From Eledone cirrhosa (Eukaryota): a stretch of 64,000 nucleotides of DNA. The stretch lies in assembly GCA_964016885.1 (NCBI GenBank), contig OZ024741.1, positions 169,384,001-169,448,000 of the forward strand, given 5' to 3'. The notes beneath the pieces are model-generated. The model was not told where the DNA came from and made no database searches. It saw only the letters and a list, made by a program, of their open reading frames with translations. Positions 13,960 to 62,933 of this stretch are shown piece by piece; position 1 is the stretch's first letter; the number at the start of each line of letters is the position of its first letter. The translations under genes and the position numbers were made by a program.

Positions 13960-13973
13960 TTTATATATATATA

Positions 13974-18900: not shown

Positions 18901-19416
18901 AAAACGGTCGAGTAACCCCTTGAGGCTGTTACACCCCCCTCTATTAGGACATGCTCCTGCATAGTCCCAACGTGCATCCAGGATGTCATTCCAATCCCCC
19001 GCTAGAAGCAGGGAACGCGACGTTCCCAGAAAAGTCTCCAAACGCTGGAAGAAGTCGGGCCGTTCAGCTCCGAAAGGGAAGTAGACGGCGACCAGTCTCA
19101 AGGCCGCACTTTCACTACTGCCAACGTCTAGCACCAACAAACGACCCTCCGGGTCCGAGTGCACAACCTGTACGGCAAGACCCAGGTGTTTTTGCAGCAG
19201 CACGACAACCCCACCCCCACCTCCAGGTTGACAGAGAGATGCATGCACCTCAAAGTCATCGAAGGTGGGGGCCAGCTGCCGCATGACGCTGATTCGAGTC
19301 TCACAGATAACCATTACATTTATACTACATGACCTGAGGTCATTTAGAAGCTTTGCTTGCTTCCAAGTTGAGCCCAGGCCACGTGCATTCAAACATCCTA
19401 CTCTTAACACATCCAT
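15979..19416 (-). CDS. ORF2: APE endonuclease, reverse transcriptase, C-terminal zinc finger
   Basis: NARGL, GDWN, YLDRF, TDH, WKLN, SPGLDG, FRPITLLN, KAFDRV, QGCPLS, YADD, CPRC..H..C; 1145 aa open. Confidence 0.97.
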   Translation of the reverse strand: MDVLRVGCLNARGLGSTWKQAKLLNDLRSCSINVMVICETRISVMRQLAPTFDDFEVHASLCQPGGGGGVVVLLQKHLGLAVQVVHSDPEGRLLVLDVGSSESAALRLVAVYFPFGAERPDFFQRLETFLGTSRSLLLAGDWNDILDARWDYAGACPNRGGCNSLKGLLDRFNLVDRYRLDFPTVPTWTWRNHSGQSRSYLDRFLVRSKDRDILSCPEMRTVGYTDHKLVTCVVNLEKTHRQGPGYWKLNLSLPAKETYRNRISRLVKERLTGAIVNNRWWASLKREIRTESISYSKMLAANRNRNEKELTGKLEEAIKSEDVARVLASRTALNQFFDAKHEGCVIRSKIRALGNEGAKAVGWARVTEAKSGNRSTIRSLQDEDGRVIREPKQMCEAFQKHFARLFGGGEGPGRGVDFGPYLDGLPRLSNKEAESCEGPISADEIGDALSQCSRRKSPGLDGIPYELYLAMPVFFSELLEAVYCNWQQNGRIPCSVAKGVVTLVRKDENKGDSINNFRPITLLNTELKILAKVLAKRLALVVGGLVGDAQTCAIPSRSIHDNLHLMRYIIERVGNKPGFGGALINLDQSKAFDRVDHGYLDAVLAAAGFGPVFRGWITALHSNHICSRIKVNGYLSKPFEITRSIRQGCPLSSLLYVLTLEPLLRKLELLQGIPLEPGLSKAVSAYADDVTVMVSTDSEIEAIGTLLEEYERLSGAKLNREKSIGLQLGTWRGKPMPPDGVVGHWTEGPVKLLGVWFGPDLQVEKNWNEVTNKVFALTQKWAKCKLSLKGRAEVANIYIASVTYYRLTVVPCPKETLTTMERMLFQFLWKKRPPMVRRSICCQQPSKGGLGMPWLMMRRHALRLRHLQVFLTGQPVWAPFVKRAFPRLVSLTELQSWVKQRSGKLGDWHTECAQALRALWQAGRAIGGESTSSFYRGLVASRGDDTLGESLDMEEDELASLFGRTFGPGPMDNFQKSLAWQCYRGALPVRERLYRHGRPGRDPSKKICPRCVRHEETVAHALVQCPGVADLWGYAEQLLSRVAPIKLTAESVMTIKPPPLFTKEAKAVFLCVIAMLKEVVWWTRLKGLRSGNFLSGHSLVYFFRYHFGRRIRMEREVLGHRQFYERWVIVARMARVNGPSLYTIL

Positions 19417-19449
19417 GTGGGCGGCAGAGCCAAAGGAGAGTGTAGAGAC

Positions 19450-21327
19450 CTACCTTTCCGCTTCCCGGGGTTCGGGTTGCACGACTTCCATGGGGTCGGG
19501 GGTGTTGGGTGAAGGGGTGTCTTGTGGTGGTGTGGGGTCGTCGGTGTGTGGTGGGGTTGGGGTGTTTGGAGTTGTGTTGGGGAGGGGAAGGGGAGGGGGA
19601 AAGCTTTTTAGTAGGACGCGGTTTATGGGTTTGACAGAGGGTGGTCCTACGTCCTCCTTAAAATCCTTTTTTAGTTTTTGGTAGAGGTTCATTGGGATTT
19701 TTATTAGTTTTAAATGTGGGTGGTTTTCTGGTGAAACAAAGTTTACACCTTCGGTTTGTACCGAAGGATTATTGTATATGAGTTCATTTAATTTATTATT
19801 GTTTCTGTTGATGTAAGTATAGTGTAATGTCTTTTTTTCCGATGGTGTGAGTGTTTCGAAGAGGGGAGGGGCAGGTTTGGTTTTGTTTGTTGCTGGAGGG
19901 GTGTTTTCTGTTTTGTTAGATTGTGTTGCGATTTGGGTGGGGGTTGTTTGTCCTTGTGTGTTTTGCACATGTTTTCTTTTTTTCCTTTTAATCTGTCTGA
20001 AGGACTCCGTTTCTTCCTCCGAATTCGTTGGGTTATCTTCAGTGTTGGAGGGAAGAGGTATGTTTGCTGGTAATGTTTCCGTGTTGGTTTTCTTTGTGGG
20101 GGAGATGGATGTCACTATGTTAGACTGTGTTGTGTGTTGTGTCTGCGGTGGTTGTGTTGTTTTATTGAGTGAGAGGTTGGGTGGGCCTGTATTTTGTTTT
20201 GGGGTAATGTGTTGTGACTGTTTGTGTTGTGGTGGTGTTGTGGTGTTACTGAGGGACGGGTTGGGTGGGACTGAGTTTTGTTGTTTGTTTATCTGTTGTG
20301 GTGGTGGTGGTGGAGCTGGTGTTGGTAGCAGAGTTTTCTTTTTGTTGAGTTGTGGACAAGCGGCCTTCAGGTGCCCTCTGCCTGCACAGATATGGCAGGA
20401 CGGCCTTCTCCCCTCCACGCTAATGTTTATATACCCGTGGTCCTCTAATAGGATTCTGTCGGGTATTTGGGCGATGCGTTCAGGCTTCATTTGTACTACC
20501 AGCTCTATACCTGTTCCACTGAACGCATTGCCTGTGGTTTTCCCAATGGAAATCACGTTGTCATTCACTGGATCGATGAAGCCAGCTATGAGCCAGCAGT
20601 AGTCCACATCTGGCATCATTGCATCCAGCCATATGCGTTGAGTTTTTTTTCCCATATAAGATGGATAAAAGGTGAAATTTTTCGAACGAATCGGTGACAA
20701 AGCACATTTTTTTGCCGCCGATTCGTTCTTCATGATAATTGCTAGGCTTCCATACAGTCTGTCTTTTCTTATGAAAGTTGTTTCATTCAGTACTTCTGCG
20801 AGTACTGTTTTGATATCTGCTTGAGAAGGCTGTTCAGGTTTTTTTGTACTGTTGTTGATGGTCCGAAACTTGACCGTTCGGCTTTCAATGTCTTTCGTGA
20901 ATTCTTGAGGCATTTTTACCAATAAAATACCATTCTCACCTTCACTTATGTATTGTTTTGCGTCCGTGATCCTTCGTACCACATCTGAAATGTTTTCCGC
21001 TATATAAGTCAAAGATTTCTTTGTTTTCTGTGCAAAAGAAATCTTGTCGTCTGCTTTGTTTTCTGATATGATGTTATTTTCAACTGTTATTTTTTTGTTT
21101 GTTGTCTTTGTTTGTGTTATTAGTATTGTCATGCAATTTTTCAAATTTTTTTTTTTTTCGTTGTTTTCGTCATTTAATTTTTCCTCCGCAGATTCGTCCG
21201 TTTTTATTTTCATTTTTCCTTCCTTCTCTATGACGTTAGTTGGGAAGGAAGGGAGGACTAAAGCGTGCGAGCTTACAACTCTTACCGCTGTCCCCCCACC
21301 ACTATTTTCGTTCGCTGCGTTTAACAT
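19450..21327 (-). CDS. ORF1 nucleic-acid-binding protein
   Basis: 625 aa upstream of ORF2; CHICAGRGHLKAAC zinc knuckle, P/T-rich linker, basic KRKKRK. Confidence 0.92.
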   Translation of the reverse strand: MLNAANENSGGGTAVRVVSSHALVLPSFPTNVIEKEGKMKIKTDESAEEKLNDENNEKKKNLKNCMTILITQTKTTNKKITVENNIISENKADDKISFAQKTKKSLTYIAENISDVVRRITDAKQYISEGENGILLVKMPQEFTKDIESRTVKFRTINNSTKKPEQPSQADIKTVLAEVLNETTFIRKDRLYGSLAIIMKNESAAKKCALSPIRSKNFTFYPSYMGKKTQRIWLDAMMPDVDYCWLIAGFIDPVNDNVISIGKTTGNAFSGTGIELVVQMKPERIAQIPDRILLEDHGYINISVEGRRPSCHICAGRGHLKAACPQLNKKKTLLPTPAPPPPPQQINKQQNSVPPNPSLSNTTTPPQHKQSQHITPKQNTGPPNLSLNKTTQPPQTQHTTQSNIVTSISPTKKTNTETLPANIPLPSNTEDNPTNSEEETESFRQIKRKKRKHVQNTQGQTTPTQIATQSNKTENTPPATNKTKPAPPLFETLTPSEKKTLHYTYINRNNNKLNELIYNNPSVQTEGVNFVSPENHPHLKLIKIPMNLYQKLKKDFKEDVGPPSVKPINRVLLKSFPPPLPLPNTTPNTPTPPHTDDPTPPQDTPSPNTPDPMEVVQPEPREAER

Positions 21328-21557
21328 TTCTGTTAGACGATTGAAATTTTTTACACAAAATTTTTTAAAACAGGTTTTTCACCTCTAGGAGGGGTAAAGA
21401 TGAGCTGACCCACCGCCTGACAGTTCAGACGGAGGGTCAAGCTACACAATTGTATCAAAATTAAGTTTGAACTCACAAAATTTCCTCAATAAATTTGAAC
21501 AAAACTTCTGTGCGAAGTGAATGACATCCACACTGTAGAACAGACGACAGCTAGATT

Positions 21558-21576
21558 GATAGATAGATAGATAGAT
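21558..21576. repeat. Short (GATA)n junction between copies A and B
   Basis: Directly visible. Confidence 0.9.
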
Positions 21577-21790
21577 TTCTTTATTTACCATAAAGGCATA
21601 AAAAGAAGGGACAAATACAAAGGGGGAGTTTACATATAATCGAGTAAAAAGGGTGTAACATGAAAATAATCGAAAATAACCTCAAAAGGGAGGGGACGTG
21701 ATGGGGGTTGCACACACCCCCGAAAAAGTGTGCAATCCTTTGCCCGGGGAGCACATGGAGAAGGTGCTCCCCTCTCCTTTACTTCTTTAC

Positions 21791-24700
21791 CTACAGGATG
21801 GTATACAGAGAAGGCCCATTTACACGAGCCATTCTCGCCACTATCACCCACCTTTCATAAAACTGCCTGTGGCCAAGCACCTCTCTCTCCATTCTTATCC
21901 TTCTTCCGAAGTGATATCGGAAGAAGTAGACCAGACTATGGCCAGAGAGGAAGTTGCCTGACCTCAGACCTTTCAATCGTGTCCACCAAACAACCTCTTT
22001 CAACATGGCTATTACGCACAGAAAAACCGCCTTTGCTTCCTTTGTGAAGAGGGGAGGCGGTTTGATTGTCATCACGGACTCGGCTGTCAATTTAATCGGC
22101 GCCACCCGCGACAGCAGTTGTTCGGCGTAGCCCCACAGATCAGCCACGCCCGGACATTGCACCAATGCGTGCGCCACGGTTTCTTCGTGACGCACGCATC
22201 TAGGGCAAATCTTTTTTGAGGGATCCCTGCCCGGGCGCCCGTGTCTGTAGAGCCTCTCTCGAACGGGTAGAGCCCCTCGGTAGCACTGCCAGGCCAGTGA
22301 CTTCTGGAAGTTGTCCATTGGTCCTGGGCCGAAAGTCCTACCGAACAGGCTGGCCAGTTCGTCTTCTTCCATGTCCAGCGACTCTCCAAGGGTGTCATCG
22401 CCCCTGCTAGCCACCAGCCCTCTATAGAATGATGAGGTGGATTCTCCACCGATGGCCCGGCCCGCTTGCCAGAGAGCCCTGAGCGCCTGAGCACACTCAG
22501 TGTGCCAGTCTCCCAGTTTTCCGGATCTTTGCTTGACCCAGGACTGTAGCTCGGTGAGTGAGACGAGTCTCGGAAAGGCTCGTTTCACGAACGGAGCCCA
22601 CACCGGTTGACCAGTGAGGAATACCTGTAGGTGCCGTAGCCTTAATGCGTGCCTACGCATCATCAACCACGGCATCCCCAGCCCTCCTTTCGAAGGTTGT
22701 TGGCAGCAGATGGATCTTCTCACCATAGGAGGACGCTTCTTCCAAAGAAATTGGAAGAGCATGCGTTCCATGGTGGTGAGTGTTTCCTTAGGGCAAGGCA
22801 CGACAGTCAGGCGGTAGTAAGTGACGGACGCTATGTAAATGTTCGCCACCTCCGCCCGGCCTTTTAGGGACAGCTTACACTTGGCCCATTTCTGGGTTAG
22901 TGCAAACACCTTGTTCGTAACCTCGTTCCAGTTCTTTTCCACCTGGAGGTCCGGTCCAAACCAGACCCCAAGCAACTTTACCGGGCCCTCCGTCCAGTGT
23001 CCGACGACACCATCGGGAGGCATCGGTCTGCCTCTCCACGTTCCGAGTTGCAGCCCGATGGATTTTTCCCGGTTCAGTTTCGCTCCTGACAACCTTTCGT
23101 ACTCCTCCAGTAAGGTACCGATCGCCTCGATCTCCGAGTCGGTTGATACCATTACTGTTACGTCATCGGCGTAGGCCGACACCGCTTTGCTCAATCCTGG
23201 TTCCAGGGGGATACCCTGCAACAACTCCAACTTCCTCAGTAAAGGCTCGAGAGTCAATACGTACAGAAGGGAGGAGAGAGGGCACCCCTGTCGAATGGAT
23301 CGTGTGATTTCGAACGGCTTCGAAAGGTAGCCGTTCACCTTGATCCTAGAACAGATGTGGTTGCTATGTAGGGCAGTGATCCAGCCTCTGAAAACAGGAC
23401 CGAACCCAGCCGCCGCTAGCACCGCATCCAGGTAACCATGGTCGACCCTATCGAAGGCCTTAGACTGATCCAAGTTGATCAGGGCCCCACCGAAGCCGGG
23501 TTTGTTGCCAACCCTCTCTATGATGTATCGCATGAGGTGGAGGTTATCGTGAATGGACCTGGATGGGATAGCACATGTCTGCGCATCTCCCACCAGGCCA
23601 CCCACGACAAGCGCCAACCTCTTTGCTAACACCTTGGCCAAAATCTTTAACTCTGTGTTTAGCAGGGTTATGGGCCGAAAATTATTTATACTATCCCCCT
23701 TGTTCTCGTCCTTCCTCACCAGCGTGACTACGCCCTTGGCTACAGAACAAGGAATTCTCCCGTTCTGCTGCCAATTGCAGTAGACCGCTTCGAGGAGTTC
23801 GGAGAAGAAGACCGGCATTGCTAAATAAAGTTCGTAAGGTATACCATCGAGACCTGGAGATTTGCGTCTGCTGCATTGGCTCAGCGCATCTCCGATCTCA
23901 TCAGCCGAGATTGGTCCCTCGCAGGACTCCGCCTCTTTGTTCGAGAGACGCGGCAGGCCGTCGAGGTATGGACCGAAATCCACGCCCCGGCCCGGACCCT
24001 CGCCTCCCCCGAACAATCGGGCAAAGTGCTTTTGAAAGGCCTCGCACATCTGCTTAGGCTCCCGGATCACTCGTCCATCTTCGTCTTGCAACGACCGGAT
24101 GGTGGATCGATTTCCACTTTTAGCTTCTGTCACGCGGGCCCATCCAACGGCTTTGGCCCCCTCATTACCTAGAGCACGTATTTTACTTCGAATGACGCAG
24201 CCTTCATGCTTTGCATCGAAAAACTGGTTCAAGGCCGTCCTCGATGCCAGCACTCTGGCCACATCTTCGCTCTTGATTGCCTCTTCTAATTTACCTGTTA
24301 ATTCTTTCTCGTTTCTATTCCTATTGGCAGCTAACATCTTGCTATAACTTATTGATTCTGTTCTAATCTCTCTTTTGAGAGATGCCCACCATCGGTTGTT
24401 GACGATTGCACCCGTCAACCTCTCCTTAACTAATCTGCTAATCCGGTTTCTGTAAGTCTCTTTTGCCGGTAAAGACAAATTAAGTTTCCAGTAACCGGGA
24501 CCCTGTCTATGTATTTTCTCGAGATTGACCACGCAGGTCACTAATTTGTGATCCGTGTAGCCAACCGTGCGCATTTCTGGACAGCTTAATATGTCCCTAT
24601 CCTTACTTCTAACTAAGAATCTATCTAAGTACGATCTAGATTGACCACTGTGGTTTCTCCAAGTCCAGGTAGGCACAGTTGGAAAATCTAGTCGATATCT

Positions 24701-25228
24701 ATCGACCAAGTTAAAACGGTCGAGTAACCCCTTGAGGCTGTTACACCCCCCTCTATTAGGACATGCTCCTGCATAGTCCCAACGTGCATCTAGGATGTCA
24801 TTCCAATCCCCCGCTAGAAGCAGGGAACGCGACGTTCCCAGAAAAGTCTCCAAACGCTGGAAGAAGTCGGGCCGTTCAGCTCCGAAAGGGGAGTAGACGG
24901 CGACCAGTCTCAAGGCCGCACTTTCACTACTGCCAACGTCTAGCACCAACAAACGACCCTCCGGGTCCGAGTGCACAACCTGTACGGCAAGACCCAGGTG
25001 TTTTTGCAGCAGCACGACAACCCCACCCCCACCTCCAGGTTGACAGAGAGATGCATGCACCTCAAAGTCATCGAAGGTGGGGGCCAGCTGCCGCATGACG
25101 CTGATTCGAGTCTCACAGATAACCATTACATTTATACTACATGACCTGAGGTCATTTAGAAGCTTTGCTTGCTTCCAAGTTGAGCCCAGGCCACGTGCAT
25201 TCAAACATCCTACTCTTAACACATCCAT
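21791..25228 (-). CDS. ORF2 (APE-RT-zinc finger), copy B
   Basis: 1145 aa; differs from A at AVYF/AVYS, EKT/EKI and RGK/RGR. Confidence 0.97.
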   Translation of the reverse strand: MDVLRVGCLNARGLGSTWKQAKLLNDLRSCSINVMVICETRISVMRQLAPTFDDFEVHASLCQPGGGGGVVVLLQKHLGLAVQVVHSDPEGRLLVLDVGSSESAALRLVAVYSPFGAERPDFFQRLETFLGTSRSLLLAGDWNDILDARWDYAGACPNRGGCNSLKGLLDRFNLVDRYRLDFPTVPTWTWRNHSGQSRSYLDRFLVRSKDRDILSCPEMRTVGYTDHKLVTCVVNLEKIHRQGPGYWKLNLSLPAKETYRNRISRLVKERLTGAIVNNRWWASLKREIRTESISYSKMLAANRNRNEKELTGKLEEAIKSEDVARVLASRTALNQFFDAKHEGCVIRSKIRALGNEGAKAVGWARVTEAKSGNRSTIRSLQDEDGRVIREPKQMCEAFQKHFARLFGGGEGPGRGVDFGPYLDGLPRLSNKEAESCEGPISADEIGDALSQCSRRKSPGLDGIPYELYLAMPVFFSELLEAVYCNWQQNGRIPCSVAKGVVTLVRKDENKGDSINNFRPITLLNTELKILAKVLAKRLALVVGGLVGDAQTCAIPSRSIHDNLHLMRYIIERVGNKPGFGGALINLDQSKAFDRVDHGYLDAVLAAAGFGPVFRGWITALHSNHICSRIKVNGYLSKPFEITRSIRQGCPLSSLLYVLTLEPLLRKLELLQGIPLEPGLSKAVSAYADDVTVMVSTDSEIEAIGTLLEEYERLSGAKLNREKSIGLQLGTWRGRPMPPDGVVGHWTEGPVKLLGVWFGPDLQVEKNWNEVTNKVFALTQKWAKCKLSLKGRAEVANIYIASVTYYRLTVVPCPKETLTTMERMLFQFLWKKRPPMVRRSICCQQPSKGGLGMPWLMMRRHALRLRHLQVFLTGQPVWAPFVKRAFPRLVSLTELQSWVKQRSGKLGDWHTECAQALRALWQAGRAIGGESTSSFYRGLVASRGDDTLGESLDMEEDELASLFGRTFGPGPMDNFQKSLAWQCYRGALPVRERLYRHGRPGRDPSKKICPRCVRHEETVAHALVQCPGVADLWGYAEQLLSRVAPIKLTAESVMTIKPPPLFTKEAKAVFLCVIAMLKEVVWWTRLKGLRSGNFLSGHSLVYFFRYHFGRRIRMEREVLGHRQFYERWVIVARMARVNGPSLYTIL

Positions 25229-25261
25229 GTGGGCGGCAGAGCCAAAGGAGAGTGTAGAGAC

Positions 25262-27139
25262 CTACCTTTCCGCTTCCCGGGGTTCGGGTTGCACGACTTC
25301 CATGGGGTCGGGGGTGTTGGGTGAAGGGGTGTCTTGTGGTGGTGTGGGGTCGTCGGTGTGTGGTGGGGTTGGGGTGTTTGGAGTTGTGTTGGGGAGGGGA
25401 AGGGGAGGGGGAAAGCTTTTTAGTAGGACGCGGTTTATGGGTTTGACAGAGGGTGGTCCTACGTCCTCCTTAAAATCCTTTTTTAGTTTTTGGTAGAGGT
25501 TCATTGGGATTTTTATTAGTTTTAAATGTGGGTGGTTTTCTGATGAAACAAAGTTTACACCTTCGGTTTGTACCGAAGGATTATTGTATATGAGTTCATT
25601 TAATTTATTATTGTTTCTGTTGATGTAAGTATAGTGTAATGTCTTTTTTTCCGATGGTGTGAGTGTTTCGAAGAGGGGAGGGGCAGGTTTGGTTTTGTTT
25701 GTTGCTGGAGGGGTGTTTTCTGTTTTGTTAGATTGTGTTGCGATTTGGGTGGGGGTTGTTTGTCCTTGTGTGTTTTGCACATGTTTTCTTTTTTTCCTTT
25801 TAATCTGTCTGAAGGACTCCGTTTCTTCCTCCGAATTCGTTGGGTTATCTTCAGTGTTGGAGGGAAGAGGTATGTTTGCTGGTAATGTTTCCGTGTTGGT
25901 TTTCTTTGTGGGGGAGATGGATGTCACTATGTTAGACTGTGTTGTGTGTTGTGTCTGCGGTGGTTGTGTTGTTTTATTGAGTGAGAGGTTGGGTGGGCCT
26001 GTATTTTGTTTTGGGGTAATGTGTTGTGACTGTTTGTGTTGTGGTGGTGTTGTGGTGTTACTGAGGGACGGGTTGGGTGGGACTGAGTTTTGTTGTTTGT
26101 TTATCTGTTGTGGTGGTGGTGGTGGAGCTGGTGTTGGTAGCAGGGTTTTCTTTTTGTTGAGTTGGGGACAAGCGGCCTTCAGGTGCCCTCTGCCTGCACA
26201 GATATGGCAGGACGGCCTTCTCCCCTCCACGCTAATGTTTATATACCCGTGGTCCTCTAATAGGATTCTGTCGGGTATTTGGGCGATGCGTTCAGGCTTC
26301 ATTTGTACTACCAGCTCTATACCTGTTCCACTGAACGCATTGCCTGTGGTTTTCCCAATGGAAATCACGTTGTCATTCACTGGATCGATGAAGCCAGCTA
26401 TGAGCCAGCAGTAGTCCACATCTGGCATCATTGCATCCAGCCATATGCGTTGAGTTTTTTTCCCCATATAAGATGGATAAAAGGTGAAATTTTTCGAACG
26501 AATCGATGACAAAGCACATTTTTTTGCCGCCGATTCGTTCTTCATGATAATTGCTAGGCTTCCATACAGTCTGTCTTTTCTTATGAAAGTTGTTTCATTC
26601 AGTACTTCTGCGAGTACTGTTTTGATATCTGCTTGAGAAGGCTGTTCAGGTTTTTTTGTACTGTTGTTGATGGTCCGAAACTTGACCGTTCGGCTTTCAA
26701 TGTCTTTCGTGAATTCTTGAGGCATTTTTACCAATAAAATACCATTCTCACCTTCACTTATGTATTGTTTTGCGTCCGTGATCCTTCGTACCATATCTGA
26801 AATGTTTTCCGCTATATAAGTCAAAGATTTCTTTGTTTTCTGTGCAAAAGAAATCTTGTCGTCTGCTTTGTTTTCTGATATGATGTTATTTTCAACTGTT
26901 ATTTTTTTGTTTGTTGTCTTTGTTTGTGTTATTAGTATTGTCATGCAATTTTTCAAATTTTTTTTTTTTTCGTTGTTTTCGTCATTTAATTTTTCCTCCG
27001 CAGATTCGTCCGTTTTTATTTTCATTTTTCCTTCCTTCTCTATGACGTTAGTTGGGAAGGAAGGGAGGACTAAAGCGTGCGAGCTTACAACTCTTACCGC
27101 TGTCCCCCCACCACTATTTTCGTTCGCTGCGTTTAACAT
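25262..27139 (-). CDS. ORF1, copy B
   Basis: 625 aa with intact CCHC knuckle; three amino-acid differences from A seen. Confidence 0.92.
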   Translation of the reverse strand: MLNAANENSGGGTAVRVVSSHALVLPSFPTNVIEKEGKMKIKTDESAEEKLNDENNEKKKNLKNCMTILITQTKTTNKKITVENNIISENKADDKISFAQKTKKSLTYIAENISDMVRRITDAKQYISEGENGILLVKMPQEFTKDIESRTVKFRTINNSTKKPEQPSQADIKTVLAEVLNETTFIRKDRLYGSLAIIMKNESAAKKCALSSIRSKNFTFYPSYMGKKTQRIWLDAMMPDVDYCWLIAGFIDPVNDNVISIGKTTGNAFSGTGIELVVQMKPERIAQIPDRILLEDHGYINISVEGRRPSCHICAGRGHLKAACPQLNKKKTLLPTPAPPPPPQQINKQQNSVPPNPSLSNTTTPPQHKQSQHITPKQNTGPPNLSLNKTTQPPQTQHTTQSNIVTSISPTKKTNTETLPANIPLPSNTEDNPTNSEEETESFRQIKRKKRKHVQNTQGQTTPTQIATQSNKTENTPPATNKTKPAPPLFETLTPSEKKTLHYTYINRNNNKLNELIYNNPSVQTEGVNFVSSENHPHLKLIKIPMNLYQKLKKDFKEDVGPPSVKPINRVLLKSFPPPLPLPNTTPNTPTPPHTDDPTPPQDTPSPNTPDPMEVVQPEPREAER

Positions 27140-27369
27140 TTCTGTTAGACGATTGAAATTTTTTACACAAAATTTTTTAAAACAGGTTTTTCACCTCTAG
27201 GAGGGGTAAAGATGAGCTGACCCACCGCCTGACAGTTCAGACGGAGGGTCAAGCTACACAATTGTATCAAAATTAAGTTTGAACTCACAAAATTTCCTCA
27301 ATAAATTTGAACAAAACTTCTGTGCGAAGTGAATGACATCCACACTGTAGAACAGACGACAGCTAGATT

Positions 27370-45085: not shown

Positions 45086-45300
45086 GAATGCCATGGTTGA
45101 CGGAGGCTCGGCTCTGTAAGGTATAGTAATTTTTAACCGTTAAAACAATTGTAAATTGTTTAAAACTTGAACCAAATTGTTGATAAAGACACCCTCCTCC
45201 TCGTGAGAGGGGTCTTTCTGTCCGTTATTTGGCCCTTCGGGGTTAAATAACCAGTTATTGGGGTTTTGTACCCAAAATTTCATTTTAAACAAAAAACAAC

Positions 45301-47397
45301 ATGGCTACGAAAAAGAAATTTCATACGTCATTCCCACTCATTCCGTCTTCTTCTTCCTCAATCATCACTACAGCAGAGAGAAGATTGTCTCTCTCCCTCC
45401 CTTCTTTAAATGTGTCTCTCTCCCTCCCTTCTCTTTCGCAAGTGACGAAAGAAAAGAAAAGTCTCGTGCAAAGCGTGCAAGGTTTCTCCACGACGACGAC
45501 GACAGCGACGAAACAGGTGTGCGGGAAATACGAAAACCCAGTTCATTCGTCTGACGTCAGGAATAATAGCAGTAGCAGCCGTAATAACAACAGCAACAGT
45601 GACAATGAAAACAACAGTAGCAGCCGCAACAGCATCACCAGCAGCATAAACAACAACAGCATTAGCAGCAGCAACACCAACAACAACCACAGCAACAGCG
45701 GCGGAGGCAGTAGTCGTAGTACCTGCAGCAACAACAAAAGTACCAGCAGCTCTGACGACAACAACAACAGCAGAGAAAAACCAATCTCATTTGCAGGTAT
45801 TGCGAAAAACTTGGAAACAATCCTCATAACAAATGAGGAATTAGAGGAAGCGAAGAAGATGGTGACAAAGAACGGACACCGAGCAATCTGCAAGGCAGCG
45901 GAAAATTTTTTCGAAACCCAAGAGCACTGTACGGTCACGTACCGTACAGTAAGTACAAAATCCCGTAGGGTGGAAAGAGCCACAGAGGCCCAAATACAAA
46001 AAGCCTTGGGGTCTGTGTGGCAGCGGAAAACGCACATCACCCGAGGCAAAAAATATGCCACCGTAGACGTACTTTTTGCCACACCCCAGGAGGCAAAGGC
46101 CCAATCAGTAGTGACCCTAAGGAGCGAGGAAATGGTGTTGGTGCCCTCCTACTGCGGGCAAAAAATTGTGAGGGTCAAACTGACCCACGTCCCCCCCGGA
46201 ATGACCCCTTCTTGGCTGGCCGCGTCTGTCCTCGTCGGAATCGAGGACAAAACAACTGTACTGCAAGTACAGAAAAAAGTAAGAGAAGATTGGGTCGGCT
46301 CCTCCATTGAGATGCTAATCCAAACCAACCAGGAGTGCATCGAAGCTATCCCGGATGTGATAGACTTCGATAACGGCACTCAACTGCCCATAAGTGTTGA
46401 GGGCAAACGCCCGAAATACTTTCGCTGTGGATCGAAGACTCACCTCAGGGCCTTCTGCAACGAGAAGACCCTGAGAAAGGAGAAAACCCCCCTCCTTCCG
46501 AATCCGGCTCCACGGCTACCAGCAACAGGACAAGCGGCAACCAGGAACGATAGGCCCGTGGCACCCATACCCACTCCACGGAAATCAAAAACAGCAGCAG
46601 CAGTGGAAATATTAACAACAACAACAGCAATACCAAATGCAGCTGCAACAGAGACTCCAGTGCAAACATCACCAACAACAACAAGTGAAAGAGTGGAGCT
46701 GGTACCCCTCCCCGACCTCACAGAATCAGACATGGAGTGTGAGGTGGGAGAGGGATGGCAAAAGGTCGTAAGAAGGCACAAACGCAGAAGCAGCGCATCG
46801 TCGCCTTTGAAAAGGGAGGAAAGAAATGAGAAAAGGGTAAAGTATACTGCAAAGAGACCCACAGCAGCAACAACACCAACACCATCACCACCCACACTAG
46901 CACCACCATCACCACCGGCGACAACCCCACCGCCAACAACACCTTCAACACCACCACCACAAGCACCAACATCGCAAACACAACAACAAAACACACACAC
47001 CCAGCAACAACGACAAGAAAATAGCAGAACCACACCCCACCCCCAGAAAAACAAATGCACGGCAATAAATACACACAACAAGAAACTAATGACTTACATA
47101 ATTGAACACACAGACATTTCACAACAGGACTACATAATACCAGCACCAATCAAAACGCCAACTAACATAAGACTGCTAAAAATAGCACAGAAACAATACA
47201 CAAACATTAAAACGAAATTCCCCAACGCAGTTGGTGATTTCAGGGACCTAGGAGGAACCATCAATCGAAGAGTATACTCAGACATTCTCTTAGAAGAGCC
47301 GACGACCAGCCGAAGGGACGATTCAACGGTCCCTTCACCAGACGATCAAGTGAAAAGGGATGTAAAAACCATCCCTCCTCTACCAAAAGTACGGTAA
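45301..47397 (+). CDS. ORF1 of LINE C
   Basis: 698 aa; N/S-rich N-terminus; knuckle YFRCGSKTHLRAFC lacks the first Cys. Confidence 0.85.
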   Translation: MATKKKFHTSFPLIPSSSSSIITTAERRLSLSLPSLNVSLSLPSLSQVTKEKKSLVQSVQGFSTTTTTATKQVCGKYENPVHSSDVRNNSSSSRNNNSNSDNENNSSSRNSITSSINNNSISSSNTNNNHSNSGGGSSRSTCSNNKSTSSSDDNNNSREKPISFAGIAKNLETILITNEELEEAKKMVTKNGHRAICKAAENFFETQEHCTVTYRTVSTKSRRVERATEAQIQKALGSVWQRKTHITRGKKYATVDVLFATPQEAKAQSVVTLRSEEMVLVPSYCGQKIVRVKLTHVPPGMTPSWLAASVLVGIEDKTTVLQVQKKVREDWVGSSIEMLIQTNQECIEAIPDVIDFDNGTQLPISVEGKRPKYFRCGSKTHLRAFCNEKTLRKEKTPLLPNPAPRLPATGQAATRNDRPVAPIPTPRKSKTAAAVEILTTTTAIPNAAATETPVQTSPTTTSERVELVPLPDLTESDMECEVGEGWQKVVRRHKRRSSASSPLKREERNEKRVKYTAKRPTAATTPTPSPPTLAPPSPPATTPPPTTPSTPPPQAPTSQTQQQNTHTQQQRQENSRTTPHPQKNKCTAINTHNKKLMTYIIEHTDISQQDYIIPAPIKTPTNIRLLKIAQKQYTNIKTKFPNAVGDFRDLGGTINRRVYSDILLEEPTTSRRDDSTVPSPDDQVKRDVKTIPPLPKVR

Positions 47398-47432
47398 GTG
47401 GTCTTTCCCATCTTTTCCACTCTATTTTAAAC

Positions 47433-50400
47433 ATGACCTCACTCAGAATAGGCAGCATAAATGCGCGTGGCTTGGGGTCGTCATGGAAGCAGGGTCACCT
47501 GCTCAACGACCTCAGGTCACTAAACATAGATGTAGTGGCCATCAGCGAGACCAGAATCTCCGAAGCACGGGCCTTCGCACCGATCTTCGGCGGCTACGAT
47601 GTGTACGCATCTCCCAGCCGTCCTGGATCCGGTGGAGGAGTTGCTGTGCTTTTTCGGAGAGGTTTGGATCTCGCCATACGGGCCATCTTCCTGGACCCAG
47701 AGGGTAAGCTGGTGGTGCTGGACGTGACCAGCGGAGACGGGCAAGCTTTCAGGCTAGTGGCCGTCTATGCCCCGACAGGAGCAGAGCAGCCTGATTTCTT
47801 CCGGCGTCTGGAGACCTTTCTTGGAACGTCCCGCTCTTTAGTGTTAGTGGGCGACTGGAACGGGATCTTAGATGCACGCTGGGACTGTGTGGGATTAGCG
47901 GATAGGGGTGGAGGGTGCAAGAGCCTCACCAACCTGGCAGGCGTTTTGAACTGTCTGACAGGTACCGATTGGATTTCCCGAATGTGCCAATGTGGACTTG
48001 GACAAACCGCATAGGGTCATCCAGATCATATCTAGATAGAGTATTTTGTAGGGAAATAGATAGGTCTAGCATAGGCTGTCCACAATTCAAGATAGTCAGC
48101 TACACGGACCACAAATTCGTGATCTGTGTGCTTGACTTAGATAGGCTTCATAGACGAGGACCCGGCTACTGGAAGCTAAACAAGTCCTTACCAGCGCGCA
48201 AGGCCTACAGAGACCGGATTAGCGAACTAGTTAAGCGGGCGTTGACAGGGGCCATCGTCAACAACAAGTGGTGGTTTGCTCTGAAAAGAGCGATTAGAAT
48301 AGAATCGTTTAGGTTTAGTAAGGCTTTAGCAATAGAGAAAAATAGAGCAGAGGGAGAACTAGTTAGAAAATTAGACGAGGCGCTTAGCAAAGGCATTGCG
48401 ACCGACGTGCTTGCGGCGAAATTGGCCCTTGACCAATTCTTCAATGCAAAGCACGAAGGCTGCGTTGTCAGAGCAAGGGTGCATGCTCTCAGACACGAGG
48501 GGACGAAAGCCGTTCAATGGGCCCGAGTGGCGGAGGCGCGTCGTGGCAACAAAGCCACGATCCGGTCTTTGGTGGACCACGACGGGCGCATGCTACTCGA
48601 TCCCGGGCAAATGTGTGAAGCTTTTCAGCGACACTTCGCTCAGCTGTTCGGGGGCAGCGGTGGGCCGGGTAGAGGGATGGACTTTAGTGTCTACCTCGAC
48701 GGACTGCCGCGGCTCTCGGCCACTGAGGCGAAGTGTTGCGAAAAGCTGATAACAGCCGCTGAAGTAAGGGAGGCAATGACTGGCTGCACAAGGGGTAAAT
48801 CGCCTGGTTTGGATGGTCTGCCCTATGAACTTTACGTACAGATGCCAGACTTGTTCGGAGGCCTCTTGGCGGACGTCTACTGCAACTGGCAACAGAACGG
48901 GATAATTCCCAGTTCTGTGAGCCGAGGAGCGGTGGCACTGCTGAGAAAGGATCCGAACAAGGGGGATAACATAGACAATTTCCGGCCCATAACTCTGCTA
49001 AACACAGAGTTTAAGATTTTGGCCAAGGTGCTAGCAAAGAGGTTGGCGCTTGTCGTTGGTGGTCTGGTGGGAGAGGCGCAGATATGCGCCATTCCCGACA
49101 GATCCATCCACGACAACCTCCACCTCATGCGATACATCGTAGAGAGGGTAGCTAGGGAACCTGGCACGGGTGGGTCCTTGATCAATTTAGATCAGTCGAA
49201 AGCTTTCGATAGGGTCGACCATCGTTACCTAGCGGCAGTCCTGAGGGCGGCTGGCTTTGGGCCCGTCTTCAGAGGCTGGATCGCTGCCATGCACAGCGAC
49301 ATCTGCTCTGTGGTGAGAGTGAACGGTCACCTGTCGGAACCGTTCAACATCATGCGCTCGGTCCGCCAAGGATGTCCCCTCTCGTCCCTCTTGTACGTAT
49401 TGACTCTCGAGCCATTACTGCACAAACTGGAGACGTTGAGGGGAGTCCCGCGCGAACTAGGATGCGGAAGATCCGTGTCAGCATATGCCGACGATGTCAC
49501 CGTAGTGGTGTCGAACGCCAAACACATCGAGGCGATCGGCACTACACTAAGAGAATACGAAGCGGTGACAGGAGCAATGATCAACCAGGAAAAGTCAGTG
49601 GGCCTGCAGCTCGGCACCTGGAGAGGCAGGTCCATGCCGTCCAACAGCGTCGTCGGACGCTGGACGGACGGACCGGTTAAATTGCTAGGGGTCTGGTTCG
49701 GTCCGGACCTCCAGACGGACAAAAACTGGGACGAGGTGACGAGCAGGGTGGCTTCTCTCACCCAGAAATGGGCGGAGAGGAAGCTATCCCTGAAAGGTCG
49801 AGCGGAGGTGGCTAACGCGTACATCGCGTCTGTCATCTGCTACCGCCTGACCGTCGTACCTTGTCCTAAGCCTCGCCTGACTGCGCTGGAGCGTTTGCTC
49901 TTTCGCTTTTTGTGGAAGGGACGTGCTCCGATGGTCAGACGGTCCATCTGTTGTCAACACCCGCTACGTGGAGGGCTGGGCATGCCGTGGCTGATGATGC
50001 GCAGCACGCGCTCAGGCTACGACATCTCCACCTCTTCCTCGACGGTGATCAGGTGTGGTCGCCGTTTGCTAGGCGCGTATTTCCCCAGCTCGTTTCCTTG
50101 ACGGAGCTGCAGTCCCGGGTCAAGCGAAGACCGAGAGGGAGCGCCTGGAGCCTGGAATGTCTTCAGGCGCTCACAGCCCTCGACCAATCGGGCAATGTGA
50201 TCGGTGGAAACTCCACCTCGGCGTTCTATAGAGGATTAGTGGAGGGTAAGAGCGACGACGTACTTGGGGAAACTCTAGGCGTCGACGAAAATCAACTAGC
50301 CAATCTCTTCGGAAGAACTTTCGGGCCGGGGCCTATGGACAATTTCCAAAAATCTCTGGCCTGGCAGTGCTACCGAGGAACCTTGCCAGTTCGGGATAAA

Positions 50401-50850
50401 CTCTACAGGCATGGAGGTGCCGTCAGCTGGGCATGTCCGAGATGCGCGCAGGGCGACGAAACCGTCCTGCACGCACTCGTCCAGTGTCCGAAAATTGCTG
50501 ACTTGTGGGTTTATGTCGAACACCTGCTGTCGCGTTTAGGACGGATCCGGCTATCATCTGAGTCCATCGTGAGGATTACCCCGCCTTCCTCCTTTAGCCG
50601 GGAAGGGCAGGCAGTTTTTATCTGTCTGGTGGCCATGGCGAAAGAGATAGTATGGTGGACACGTTTGAAAGGGCTGAAGACGAGCACTTACCTCTTCGGT
50701 GATGCCCTGATTAACTTTTTCAAATTTCATTTGCAAAGGAAAATCAGGGTAGAGAGGGAAGTGCTCTCTTCCCAGCATTTTGTTGAAAGATGGGTGAGAG
50801 AAGCAAGAATGGCCCGAGTGAATGGGCCTACTCTGAGTATATATCTGTAA
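47433..50850 (+). pseudogene. ORF2 of LINE C with two frameshifts (about 47937 and 50003)
   Basis: Three overlapping ORFs together give APE, RT (YADD) and zinc finger. Confidence 0.9.
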
Positions 50851-51582
50851 ATTAAAGGTGGAAAACTGGGAGAGGGCACTTGCCTTGGTGGTTAGGGTCA
50901 TTGTGGCTTTTTACTGGGCTTTCTCCACAAATGTCCCTCCGAAGTCTCCCCCCTTTTGGGGAATTTTTCATTGTTATTTTCATTGTTATTTTTGTTACAT
51001 CCTCTGTTTTTGTTTTTTACACGCAGAAATGCCCAATTGTACCGTCCTGCATTGTCCTGCACTGTCCTTAATGTCTACTTTATGTAAACCCTTGTGGTTA
51101 ATAAAGAAATCATTATTATTATTATTATTATTATATAAATTAACCGTGAGAGACACTAAAGACACACACACAAATCTCAATTTGCGTTATTCATCGATCT
51201 GCTGGAAACAACGTTGATATTTGTCTCAACTAACAGCCTCTCTCCTGGAAGAAGGAAAAAACGGTGATAAATACTTTTCTGCAAGTTTGTGTTAGTAGTT
51301 AATGCTAACACCAAATGTTGAATTATTTCCCTTGATTAATACAAGATAGTAGATTTGAAGGCGTAAGTAAAGATAGTTTAGTTGTTAAATTGATAAAGTT
51401 TGTATAAAGAAGAATAACTTTGAAAGTAAAGAGTAGTGAATAAGTGTATAAATAAAATAATTTGCAAGTTGTATTGTTTTTTCTATTGTGGAATTAAATT
51501 TTGAGTAGTTGTTGATGGTATAAAGTCAGTAGATCTTTTGTAAGTATAATGTTATATGAAGAAAGTGATTATGGTATCTAGC

Positions 51583-56583: not shown

Positions 56584-56791
56584 GGTGACCTACGTAGTAA
56601 ATCGTATCATCGTGAGCTCCGCAAAGGTTTGTTATTTCCGTTTGTTAAAAATTGTCATTTATGGAAAATTTTATTGTTAACTGTTTATAAGCGCACATAC
56701 ATTGTTTTCCGAAAAGGACACCCAAAAAGATTGGGGCCTTGTGCCCAAAATTTAAACTTTTATTATTATCAACAAATTTCTTTGAAAAAAA

Positions 56792-58786
56792 ATGGCTAAT
56801 TCACCTCTGCACCAAACAGCTGAAAGCCTTCCTCACAAATTAACACCTCACACCGACACCACCATTGTAAATGTTACTACGTTTGCCAACACAAAAAAAT
56901 ATATAAGCAGTAGCAATATTTTAAATTTGTCTCAGGCAGACATTCATTTCCCGCCATTACCAATGACTGCAGGTGTTAAAGCCTCCACCACCACCACCAC
57001 CGCGACAACCACCACCCCCACCACCACCGCGACAACAGAAACAAAAGAAGAAAAAAATAAATTAACTCGTGATGTCGAAATGAAATCAAGCAAAATGGAC
57101 TCTTCCCCACCAAAGACGACTGACGTCACCACCACCACAACTGAAACTAAAATTAATATTAACGATAGCAACAACAACAACAATGACATTATAAAACCCC
57201 CCCTCAGTTTCGCCAGAGTAGCAAAACAATTCGAAGCATTTACGGTAACTCAGGAAGATTTAGAAAATGCCAAACAAATGGTAAAGAAAGATGGGTACAG
57301 GGTCAGCCTCACCCCACCCCCCACCCCACCTAATAAAATGTAGCATCGGCGCCTATGCACCGTGTCGTATAGAACAATAAATGTAAAATCGCGCCGAGTG
57401 GAACGGGCATCCGAGTCCCAAATCCAAAAAGCTTTGGGACATGTGTGGGCAAGAAAAACCCACATCAGACGTGGGCAAAAGTATGGAACCGTGGACGTGT
57501 TCTTTGAAACACCAGAGGAGGCTAGAGAACACTCCATGACCCCATTAAAAAGTGACGACTTCACACTCGTCCCAAGCTATTGTGGCCAGGGACTCGTAAA
57601 GATCAGGGTGACCCACGTTCCACCGGCCATCGAAATTCCCTGGCTAATAGCGGCCGTCCTCGCCGGCATCGAAGCCAACACGAAAATAATAGCAATAGCA
57701 AAAGAAAAGCAGGAAAACTGGTCCGGATCTGGGATGGAGCTCCTGATCCAAGCGGACCAAAAAAGCATTGAGGAGATCCCAGAGGTAATAGACCTCACTG
57801 ACGGCAGCCACCTCACGGTAATTGTCGAGGGCAGAAGACCTAGGTGTGTCGTTTGTGGTGAAGGAACCCACCTAAGGGCTTTCTACCCTCAGGCTAAAAG
57901 GTTGAGGCCACCTCTCCTACCCACCCCAGTGACACAACCATCAACACCACCAGTAGCAGAGATGGCAGTAACAACTGTAGCAGCAACAACAGAAGCAACT
58001 ATAACAGCAACAACCCCAGCAACAATAGCAAAACCAACACCACTACCACCACCAGCAAAACCAACACCACCACCACCCAACGCTTCAGAACTAGCACCAG
58101 CGCCTACACCATCCACCACACCACAACCAAAACTAACGGCTGTGGAGGATTTTCCACTCCCCGGCCTATCACAACTGGAGACAGATTGTGACGACGAGGA
58201 GTGGGAAACGATATCCGGAAAAAAAAAAAGAAACCAAAAAAGAAAAAATTCTCTTCCTTCCCCCTCCAAAAACAAAATACAGAGGGAAACAAATAAATTA
58301 AGAAACAAAAAAGTTAGGACAGATATGCCACCATCCACACCAGCATCACCAACCCCATCAACCCAAACACCAACACCATCACCATCATTAACCCCAGCAC
58401 CACCATCACCTACACCACAAAAGTCACCAAAATGCGAAACAGAAACAAACCCACAACAAACGCAAACAAAACAAAACAACCAAAACGATACACACTACAC
58501 AGCATTAAATTTGAACAACAAGCAATTATTACACTACATCCAACACAACACCAGCATCACAGAAAAAGACTACACAACAACCCCAAAATTCACACCACCT
58601 CCACACATACAAATCACTCGCATCACACAGAAAATGTACATGACACTAAAACAAAAATTCCCCAAAGACATCGGAGACTTCCGACAAGCACTCTCCAGGA
58701 GGATTTATAAGGACATCCTTCCTGAGGAGGCCACAAGCAGTGAAAAGGATGGAAAAACCGTCCTTCCCCTACGAGAAGTAAGGTAA
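56792..58786 (+). pseudogene. ORF1 of LINE D with in-frame stop at 57341-57343
   Basis: ORFs 56792-57343 and 57362-58786 share a frame; knuckle CVVCGEGTHLRAFY lacks the last Cys. Confidence 0.85.
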
Positions 58787-58820
58787 GTGGCCTTTCCCAT
58801 CTTTTCCACTCCTTTTCAAC

Positions 58821-61800
58821 ATGACCTCACTCAGAATAGGCAGCATAAATGCGCGTGGCTTGGGGTCGTCATGGAAGCAGGGCCACCTGCTCAACGACCT
58901 CAGGTCACTAAACATAGATGTAGTGGCCATCAGCGAGACCAGAATCTCCGAAGCACAGGCTTTCGCACCGATCTTCGACGGCTACGATGTGTACGCATCT
59001 CCCAGCTTTCCGGGATCGGGGGGGGAGGAGTTGCTGTGCTTTTTCGGAGAGGTTTGGATCTTGCCATACGGGCCATCTTCCTGGACCCAGAAGGTAAGTT
59101 GGTGGTGCTGGACGTGACCAGCGGAGACGGGCAAGCTTTCAGGTTAGTGGCCGTCTATGCCCCGACAGGAGCAGGGCGGCCTGATTTCTTCCGGCGTCTG
59201 GAGACCTTTCTTGGAACGTCCCGCTCTTTAGTGTTAGTGGGCGACTGGAACGGGATCTTAGATGCACGCTGGGATTGTGTGAGATTAGTGGATAGGGAAG
59301 GAGGGTGCAAGAGTCTCACCAACCTGCTCAGACGTTTTGAACTGTCTGACAGGTACCGAATGGATTTCCCGAATGTACCAATGTGGACTTGGACAAATCG
59401 CATAGGGTCATCCAGATCATATCTAGATAGAGTATTTTGTAGGGAAATAGATAGGTCTAGCATAGGCTGTCCACAATTCAAGATAGTCAGCTACACGGAC
59501 CACAAATTCGTGATCTGTGTGCTTGACTTAGATAGGCTTCATAGACGAGGACCCGGCTACTGGAAGCTAAACAAGTCCTTACCAGCGCGCAAGGCCTACA
59601 GAGACCGGATTAGCGAACTAGTTAAGCGGGCGTTGACAGGGGCCATCGTCAACAACAAGTGGTGGTTTGCTCTGAAAAGAGCGATTAGAATAGAATCGAT
59701 TAGGTTTAGTAAGGCTTTAGCAATAGAGAAAAATAGAGCAGAGGGAGAACTAGTTAGAAAATTAGACGAGGCGCTTAGCAAAGGCATTGCGACCGACGTG
59801 CTTGCGGCGAAATTGGCCCTTGACCAATTCTTCAATGCAAAGCACGAAGGCTGCGTTGTCAGAGCAAGGGTGCATGCTCTCAGACACGAGGGGACGAAAG
59901 CCGTTCAATGGGCCCGAGTGGCGGAGGCGCGTCGTGGCAACAAAGCCACGATCCGGTCTTTGGTGGACCACGACGGGCGCATGCTACTCGATCCCGGGAA
60001 AATGTGTGAAGCTTTTCAGCGACACTTCGCTCAACTGTTCGGGGGCAGTGGCGGGCCGGAACGAGGGATGGACTTTAGTGTCTACCTCGACGGACTGCCG
60101 CGGCTTTCGGCCACTGAGGCGGAGTGTTGCGAAAAGCCGATAACAACCGCTGAAGTACGGGATGCAATGACTAGTTGCACAAGGGGTAAATCGCCTGGTT
60201 TGGATGGTCTGCCCTATGAACTTTACGTACAAATGCCAAACTTGTTCGGAGGCCTCTTGGCGGACGTCTACTGCAACTGGCAACAGAACGGGAGAATTCC
60301 CAGCTCTGTGAGCCAAGGAGCGGTGGCGCTGCTGAGAAAGGATCCGAACAAGGGGGATAACATAGATAATTTAGGCCCATAACTCTGCTAAACACAGAGT
60401 TCAAGATTTTGGCCAAGGTGCTAGCAAAGAGGTTGGCGCTTGTCGTTGGTGGTCTGGTGGGAGAGGCACAGACATGCGCCATTCCCGACAGATCCATCCA
60501 CGACAACCTCCACCTCATGCGATACATCGTAGAGAGGGTAGCTAGGGAACCTGGCACGGGTGGGTCTTTGATCAATTTAGATCAGTCGAAAGCCTTCGAT
60601 AGGGTCGACCATCGTTACCTAGCGGCAGTCCTGAGGGCGGCTGGCTTTGGGCCCGTCTTCAGAGGCTGGATCGCTGCCATGCACAGCGACATCTGCTCTG
60701 TAGTGAGGGTGAACGGTCACCTTTCGGAACCGTTCAACATCATGCGCTCGGTCCGCCAAGGATGTCCCCTCTCGTCCCTCTTGTACGTATTGACTCTCGA
60801 GCCATTACTGCACAAACTGGAGACGTTGAGGGGGGTCCCGCGCGAATTGGATGCGGAAGATCCGTGTCAACACATCGAGGCGATCGGCACTACACTAAGA
60901 GAATACGAAGTGGTGACAGGAGCAATGATCAACCAGGAAAAGTCAGTGGGCCTGCAGCTCGGCACCTGGAGAGGCAGGTCCATGCCGTCCAAAAGCGTCG
61001 TCGGGCGCTGGACGGACGGACCGGTTAAATTGCTAGGGGTCTGGTTCGGTCCAGACTTCCAGACGGACAAAAACTGGGACGAGGTGACGGGCAGGGTGGC
61101 TTCTCTCACCCAGAAATGGGCCGAGAGGAAGCTATCCCTGAAAGGTCGAGCGGAGGTGGCGAATGAGTACATCGCATCCGTCATCTACTACCGCCTGACC
61201 GTCGTACCTTGTCCTAAGCCCCGCCTGGCTGCGCTGGAGCGTTTGCTCTTTCGCTTCTTGTGGAAGGGAGGCGCTCCGATGGTCAGGCGGTCCATCTGCT
61301 GTCAACACCCGCTACGTGGAGGGCTGGGCATGCCGTGGCTGATGATGCGCAGACACGCGCTCAGGCTACGACATCTCCACCTCTTCCTCGACGGTGATCA
61401 GGTGTGGTCGCCGTTTGCTAGACACGTTTTTTCCCCAGCTCGTCTCCTTGACGGAGCTGCAGTCCTGGGTCAAGCGAAGACCGAGAGGGAGCGCTTGGAG
61501 ACTGGAATGTCTTCAGGCGCTCACAGCCCTCGACCAATTGGGCAATGTGATCGGTGGAAACTCCACCTTGGCGTTCTATAGGGGATTAGTGGAGGGGAAG
61601 AGCGACGACGTACTTGGAGAAACTCTAGGCGTCGACGAAAATCAACTAGCCAATCTCTTCGGAAGGACTTTCGGGCCGGGGCCTATGGACAACTTCCAGA
61701 AATCCCTGGCCTGGCAGTGCTACCGAGGAGCCTTGCCAGTTCGGGATAAACTCTACAGGCATGGAGGTGCCGTCAGCCGGGCATGTCCGAGATGCACGCA

Positions 61801-62200
61801 GGGCGACGAAACCGTCCTGCACGCACTCGTCCAGTGTCCGAGCTTTGCTGACTTGTGGGTTTATGTCGAACACCTGCTGTCACGTGTAGGACGGATCCAG
61901 CTATCAGCTGAGTCCATCGTGAGGATTGCCCCACCCCCTTCCTTTAGCCGGGAAGGGCAGGCAGTTTTTATCTGTCTGGTGGCCATGGCGAAAGAGATAG
62001 TATGGTGGACACGTTTGAAAGGGCTGAAGACGAGCACTTACCTCTTCGGTGATGCCCTGATTAACTTTTTCAAATTTCATTTGAAAAGGAAAATCAGGGT
62101 AGAGAGGGAAGTGCTCTCTTCCCAGCATTTTGTTGAAAGATGGGTGAGAGAAGCAAGTATGGCCCGAATGAATGGGCCTTCTCTGAGTATGTGTCTGTAA
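58821..62200 (+). pseudogene. ORF2 of LINE D, frameshifted, YADD deleted
   Basis: Shifts near 59020, 60372 and 61430; about 41 nt missing near 60869 relative to LINE C. Confidence 0.9.
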
Positions 62201-62933
62201 ATTAAAGGTGGAAAACTGGGAGAGGGCACTTGCCTTGGTGGTCAGGGCCACTGTGTTCTTTTAATGGGCTTTCTCCACAAATGTCCCTCGGAAGTCTCCC
62301 CCCTATTGGGGAATTTTTCTTTGTTATTTTATTTCATCCTCTGTTTTCTTTTACAGGCAGAAATGCCCATTTGTACCGTCCTGTATTGTTCTGTACTGTC
62401 CTTAATGTCTACTTTATGTAAACCCTTGTGGTTAATAAAGAAAACATTATTATTATTATTATTATTATTATCATTATTATTATAATAAAATTAACCGTGA
62501 GAGACACTAAAGACACACACACAAATCTCAATTTGCATTATTCATCGATCTGCTGGAAACAACGTTGATATTTGTCTCAACTAACAGCCTCTCTCCTGGA
62601 AGAAGGAAAAAACAGTGGTAAATACTTTTCTGCAAGTTTGTGATAGTAGTTAATGCTAAAAGCAAATGTTGAATTATTTCCCTTGACTAATACAAGATAG
62701 TAGATTTGAAGGCGTAAGTAAAGATAGTTTAGTTGTTAAATTGATAAAGTTTGTATAAAGAAGAATAACTTTGAAAGTAAAGAGTATTGAATAAGTGTAT
62801 AAATAAAATAATTTGCAAGTTGTATTGTTTTTTGTATTGTGGAATTAAATTTTCAGTAGTTGTTGATGGTATAAAGTCAGTAGATCTTTTGTAAGTATAA
62901 TGTTATATGAAGAAAGTGATTATTGTATCTAGC

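Follow-up and report, generated by a model that had tools for sequence, protein, structure and literature searches.

In the plant Ty1/copia retrotransposons, exemplified by the Arabidopsis element EVD, a conserved splice donor that binds the U1 small nuclear RNA (snRNA) lies close to where the structural gene ends; splicing from this donor yields a Gag RNA that encodes the structural protein only, and the full-length RNA is protected by U1 as well (PMC5580714; here, as for the other papers cited by PMC number, statements refer to excerpted parts of the text). LINEs (long interspersed nuclear elements) are regarded as intron-less RNAs for which strong splice sites represent a cost. In human L1, functional donors and acceptors have been described, and the spliced forms, known as SpIREs, leave genomic copies (PMC5860796). 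Among LINEs of the Tx1 clade, Kibi and Koshi target the microsatellites (TC)n and (TTC)n (PMC4494074), and L1-Tx1 families are active in Octopus vulgaris (PMC13282606). We report here on a 64-kb stretch of the Eledone cirrhosa genome (GCA_964016885.1, contig OZ024741.1, positions 169,384,001 to 169,448,000 of the forward strand; hereafter the window), which contains four LINEs with two open reading frames (ORFs), A and B on the minus strand and C and D on the plus strand, all bearing a U1-type splice donor on the ORF1 stop codon. In a literature search covering titles and abstract openings, with few subscription papers, no description of a donor at the ORF1 stop of a LINE was found. As a plausible rather than a probable reading of the sequence comparisons, we propose that this donor serves to splice out all of ORF2, leaving an ORF1-only mRNA comparable to the Gag RNA of copia.

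The positions of donor, stop, spacer, ORF2 ATG and downstream AG given in a preliminary description of the window were confirmed at all four junctions (Table 1). This description relied on the sharing of the donor by three divergent ORF1 types, and the motif is indeed present in all of them; their threefold independence does not stand, C and D being close relatives. At four-fold degenerate sites of ORF2, C and D differ by 5% and A and C by 48%, and with the ORF2s of C and D near-identical, the window shows two lineages, not three. Likewise, no weight can be given to the observation that joining the donor to the AG of ORF2 codon 5 is in frame with three different spacer lengths (35, 34 and 33 nt in C, D and A/B, for GT-to-AG distances of 53, 52 and 51 nt): as the join unites two bases of the last ORF1 codon with the third base of an ORF2 codon, it is in frame by construction, whatever the length of the spacer. 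The claim of a conserved, U1-like donor was itself borne out. Scored for pairing with the 5' end of U1, as encoded by a gene of the window itself, the junction donor ranked 1-3 among roughly 300 GT sites in 21 of the 22 elements. In a random-flank test with the stop held fixed and the flanks drawn from the same element, so strong a site arose near the stop in 0.6-1.9% of 2,000 draws per element, with a threshold and a window chosen after the data had been seen. The donor is probably more than a product of chance.

Conservation across the genome of Eledone can be followed further, a degenerate ORF2 pattern giving 2,672 matches besides A/B and C/D. Junctions were read at 30 loci and in 80 fetched stretches, nearly all within the first 80 Mb of contig C1, and the motif was matched in 53 of 62 scored copies, distributed over 12 subfamilies. 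The stop inside the motif is TAA, TGA or TAG according to the subfamily, the variation at donor positions +3 and +4 is restricted to A/G at the subfamily level, and the register with respect to the stop is free, the +1 G lying at -5, -1 or +4. When frames were followed from an ORF1 anchor, the donor proved to be translated within ORF1, as Gly-Glu or Gly-Lys, with the stop 4 nt farther on, in 7 of 8 G copies and 9 of 12 F copies (the remaining F copies are interrupted upstream); since the donor is kept despite this displaced stop, the motif is not a by-product of an Arg-stop ending. In a J-type variant (L098, L099, L106, L186 and L299), one base is missing before the donor, which creates a third phase, assigned by homology only, with the stop in the spacer. 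A loose pattern intended for more distant L1 families of the same genome returned mostly chance matches (58, versus 20 in the control).

It might be argued that the stop codon supplies part of the donor consensus and that the rest was neutrally inherited from a common ancestor. The ORF2 tree comprises 3.0 substitutions per four-fold site, with only 40 of 127 such sites fixed; because this 31% of sites is invariant too, the evidence from the Eledone genome alone is moderate, and fixation of the three or four free positions of the motif has a probability of about 0.01-0.03. Moreover, one family has C at donor +6, nine of the 62 copies lack the motif, and the thresholds were set post hoc. Such an origin, against which stands the retention of the motif through frame shifts and heavy insertions and deletions in the spacer, nevertheless appears unlikely when more distant relatives are considered. 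A scan of a genome collection revealed, under the label of a bacterial metagenome-assembled genome (MAG), a record with LINEs in tandem arrays; these LINEs form the L224 family, with 40% ORF2 identity, a homologous ORF1 and a distance of about 1.1 amino-acid changes per site on the reverse transcriptase (RT) tree. In this family all nine distinct junction strings, which count once because the family is young, carry a perfect donor placed one base past the ORF1 stop, 13 nt short of the ATG. Here the stop precedes the donor and codon 5 has no AG, so that any splice from this donor would keep ORF1 intact and lose the start of ORF2. In total, a strong donor occurs at the stop in two of nine outside families, where the null expectation for each is 0.6-1.8%, or about 1-2% per family; this count rests on a post hoc threshold, omits L201, whose ORF1 stop was not placeable, and takes L196 and L267 as one. 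For a strong donor to be held at the ORF1 stop across such deep divergence, the element must gain something from U1 or from the spliceosome.

Several observations accompany these relatives. L200, an L1-like element very far removed (its ORF2 is 26% identical to the query), likewise ends ORF1 with Gly-Glu-stop on a strong donor. A second strong donor is found just 3' of the ORF2 stop in L224-L268 and in L265; in the L224 family a pyrimidine tract comes next, and then a YAG 34-40 nt on, like a very short 3' untranslated region (UTR) intron. Tandem LINE arrays occur in the CAXXMW01 contigs (L223-L268) and in CBDHHR010000099.1 (L267), both in records labelled as bacterial MAGs, and most likely represent DNA of a eukaryotic host in the bin.

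With regard to what splicing might achieve, the donor in the Eledone elements lies at most 5 nt from the stop, and therefore any splice from it leaves ORF1 essentially whole and removes the start of ORF2. The preliminary description, which favoured an intron fusing ORF1 to ORF2, had added as a caveat that the donor could splice further downstream or, through U1, protect from premature polyadenylation, and we judge this caveat the better reading of the two. Of 11 aligned subfamilies, 10 have an ORF2 that closes with a pyrimidine-rich YAG, which is part of the TAG stop. Joining the donor to this TAG produces an immediate stop in seven of ten subfamilies (A/B, E, H, I, K, G and J), in both ORF1 phases, and costs a single extra residue in F; at the other YAG sites of ORF2, an immediate stop is obtained in 2-9% of cases. 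C and D need a different acceptor, given that their ORF2 ends in TAA, and a strong candidate is present in the 3'UTR of both. We thus envisage that in most subfamilies the donor would be joined to ORF2's own stop, and in C and D to the 3'UTR acceptor instead, the resulting mRNA supplying ORF1 protein in excess of the enzyme, as the copia Gag RNA does for its structural protein. The unspliced RNA would be the form copied into the genome; on it, translation of ORF2 would start at the ORF2 ATG, with reinitiation, known from L1, as the probable means. Following the 50-55 nt rule, a junction located at the stop would escape nonsense-mediated decay. In its most complete form, which we regard as possible although rather doubtful, the whole of ORF2 would be an optional intron bounded by two stops, whose removal rebuilds the ORF1 stop and by which a LINE sets its ORF1p:ORF2p ratio, with a donor kept across animal hosts.

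A number of results weigh against the excision of ORF2. The same join to the TAG adds 50 residues in G2 and 32 in M, two other ORF2 positions score as well or better as shared acceptors, and the base after the TAG could instead belong to a second donor-like site. As the subfamilies are related, seven of ten does not amount to seven independent events, and homology was the basis on which ORF1 phase was assigned in H, K, M and J. The donor is absent in the sister family L265 and in six of seven more distant families, and hence is either old, with losses in some lines, or was gained more than once. Finally, no genomic trace of the event was found. No ORF1-to-3'UTR join was matched among A/B-type copies, beside 3,507 unspliced ones; among 75 C/D copies altered at donor +5, 74 continue into the spacer and one is a deletion keeping the GT, in a search limited to acceptors followed by an exon without G at +5 and A at +20. 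Since no ORF2 is translated in cis from an RNA carrying ORF1 alone, such an RNA should leave few genomic copies; this cis-preference weakens the objection and does not remove it.

The lack of any spliced genomic copy among the forms tested is also what would be seen if U1 bound the donor without splicing and helped an intron-less 6-kb RNA to reach full length, by blocking premature termination or by promoting stability or export, the site being placed at the end of ORF1 because the spacer is the sole non-coding place in the middle of the element. This alternative has a smaller, though appreciable, likelihood. In EVD, donor-bound U1 blocks premature termination (PMC5580714); most elements of the Eledone genome have an A(A/T)TAAA hexamer 290-400 nt upstream of the ORF2 ATG, a pyrimidine tract lies 3' of the donor, and the L224 family and L265 carry their additional strong donor shortly after the ORF2 stop. 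The hexamer may however merely encode Asn-Lys, G and H keep the donor without it, the ORF2 of donor-bearing elements contains just 0-3 poly(A) signals, and the stop rebuilt at the ORF2 TAG is left unexplained. Protection by U1 and excision of ORF2 can coexist, as U1 protection and splicing do in EVD.

In contrast, the intron of 51-53 nt that was first proposed to join ORF1 to ORF2 in frame is largely refuted, and we consider it very improbable. If the RNA that makes ORF2 is the RNA that is copied, a fusion intron should leave intron-less copies, and for comparison the spliced copies of human L1 amount to about 1.8% of the full-length ones (PMC5860796). The genome-wide check for intron-less retrocopies gave no precise one among the family members searched, beside 7,864 copies with unspliced spacing (4,357 of C/D type and 3,507 of A/B type). 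Searches for shortened spacing returned one C/D-type copy, an imprecise deletion keeping the donor, and ten copies in A/B-type subfamilies, none of them shortened at the GT and the AG; these searches thus yielded 11 imprecise deletions in all, and a narrower A/B search gave no match. The join to the codon-5 AG is in frame in nine of 12 subfamilies, which speaks for the fusion, and out of frame in the other three (F, G and J), and the length of the intron would span 39-61 nt across subfamilies, with only 39-42 nt in E and K. The ORF2 ATG is conserved with a Kozak-like context, seven full-length relatives also begin ORF2 a few residues before the first endonuclease strand, and fusion is impossible in the L224 family, where the stop precedes the donor. 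Among the 15 joints listed, of 38, in contigs from four runs covering 47000-48000, none matched the fusion intron, and two contigs of run X6 cross the donor unspliced; the kind of these runs being unrecorded and contigs dropping rare forms, both observations weigh neither way. An acceptor upstream of the ORF2 ATG, giving an ORF2-only RNA or a fusion through a spacer AG, was also considered and rejected: an AG is available in some subfamilies only, the introns would be shorter than about 40 nt, and no copies were found.

The conserved ATG raises another explanation, namely that the motif is a cytoplasmic signal for termination-reinitiation that merely resembles a splice donor. It lies 13-47 nt upstream of this ATG, which has a strong context, and L1 and SART1 both use termination-reinitiation (PMC5972666). 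The motif nonetheless varies along the lines of U1 pairing and is not tied to one register with the stop, and the core of a termination upstream ribosome-binding site (TURBS), sought 30-100 nt upstream, is absent in the eight Eledone elements tested (8/8), which together make this explanation quite improbable. Intron mimicry as an escape from HUSH-type silencing was dropped, since in that system protection persisted after deletion of the 5' splice site (PMC8770142).

Regarding their class, the ORF2 of A encodes APE endonuclease, RT and zf-RVT domains (Pfam PF03372, PF00078 and PF13966), with its closest named protein found in Argonauta hians (68% in the RT region), a match which by itself makes an octopod host likely. 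A separate ORF1 of 625-698 aa lies 5' of ORF2, in A/B with a CX2CX4HX4C knuckle read from the sequence; there are no long terminal repeats (LTRs), and the element ends adjoin microsatellites. A and B, tandem twins in an (ATCT)n tract, are intact; both C and D are damaged, each lying in an (ATT)n tract, and several other subfamilies have simple-repeat tails resembling those of A-D. These elements fit microsatellite-targeting Tx1-type LINEs, on features of sequence and with an RT tree that held no named reference element. Many copies stand head-to-tail about 6 kb apart (e.g., contig C1 55427323-55453264 and 56166059-56178153), as expected from an element re-inserting into its own microsatellite tail. 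Comparison of C with D (45086-47397 versus 56584-58786) shows near-identical ORF2 and spacer, different 5'UTRs and divergent ORF1s, which suggests module exchange or fast ORF1 evolution.

Table 1. Features of the four LINE copies; coordinates are those of the window.
Feature	Position	Strand	Remarks
LINE copy C	45086..51111	+	L1/Tx1 type; inserted in (ATT)n tract
C ORF1	45301-47397	+	open; TAA stop 47395-47397
Predicted U1-type 5' splice donor on C ORF1 stop	47391..47399	+	+1 G 47394; rank 2/305 GT sites, U1 pairing
C inter-ORF spacer	47398..47432	+	35 nt, pyrimidine-rich; up to ORF2 ATG 47433
C ORF2	from 47433	+	broken by frameshifts
C downstream AG	47445-47446	+	codon 5 of ORF2
Candidate 3' splice acceptor, C 3'UTR	51007..51026	+	pyrimidine tract and CAG
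LINE copy D	56584..62445	+	in (ATT)n tract; both ORFs fragmented
Predicted donor on D ORF1 stop	58780..58788	+	+1 G 58783; rank 2/282 GT sites
D ORF2 ATG	58821	+	
Candidate acceptors, D 3'UTR	62337..62360	+	AG 62355-62356 and 62359-62360
LINE copy A	15762..21557	-	intact ORF1 (625 aa) and ORF2 (1145 aa); (ATCT)n tract
Predicted donor on A ORF1 TAG stop	19448..19456	-	+1 G 19453; rank 2/302 GT sites
A ORF2 ATG	19416	-	
A ORF2 end, candidate acceptor	15979..15998	-	pyrimidine-rich run and TAG; would rebuild ORF1 Arg-stop
LINE copy B	21574..27369	-	intact; tandem twin of A, offset 5,812 bp
Predicted donor on B ORF1 TAG stop	25260..25268	-	+1 G 25265
B ORF2 ATG	25228	-	

The window also contains a tandem cluster of nine U1 snRNA genes (32671-63097, plus strand), one of them shortened (40001-40141), and C and D each lie in their (ATT)n tract about 470-490 nt upstream of a U1 gene. 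This proximity was dropped as evidence of function and is taken as a shared insertion neighbourhood. The positions 41772-42134, 44520-44957, 53241-53603, 56021-56383 (minus strand) and 12107-14937 hold recurring short ORFs of the U1 repeat unit together with two ORF fragments which look like pieces of other retroelements.

Compared with the Tx1-clade LINEs Kibi, Koshi and the L1-Tx1 elements of O. vulgaris, the elements described here share the two ORFs, the APE, RT and zf-RVT domains and insertion in microsatellites, with (ATT)n and (ATCT)n as targets, unlike Kibi and Koshi; a donor at the ORF1 stop is not mentioned for any of these in the excerpted text (PMC4494074, PMC13282606), and the main text of the latter, supplements aside, mentions neither splicing nor ORF1. 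With L1 and SART1 they have in common an ORF2 ATG of its own shortly after the ORF1 stop (63 nt in L1), and no donor at this stop is described in the excerpts of that work (PMC5972666). The SpIREs of human L1 arise by splicing within the 5'UTR and yield dead-end copies, as far as the excerpted account goes, whereas the donor reported here is at the ORF1 stop, appears selected and has left no copies that we could find. With EVD, the Eledone elements share a conserved U1-binding donor, here predicted from sequence, close to the structural gene's end. EVD is an LTR element with a single Gag-Pol frame, a short intron and early polyadenylation, while the present elements are two-ORF LINEs whose predicted intron is all of ORF2. 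Were ORF2 to be spliced out as we propose, the product would be the non-LTR counterpart of the copia Gag RNA, and LINEs and LTR elements would have arrived at a common solution for producing structural protein in excess of the enzyme.

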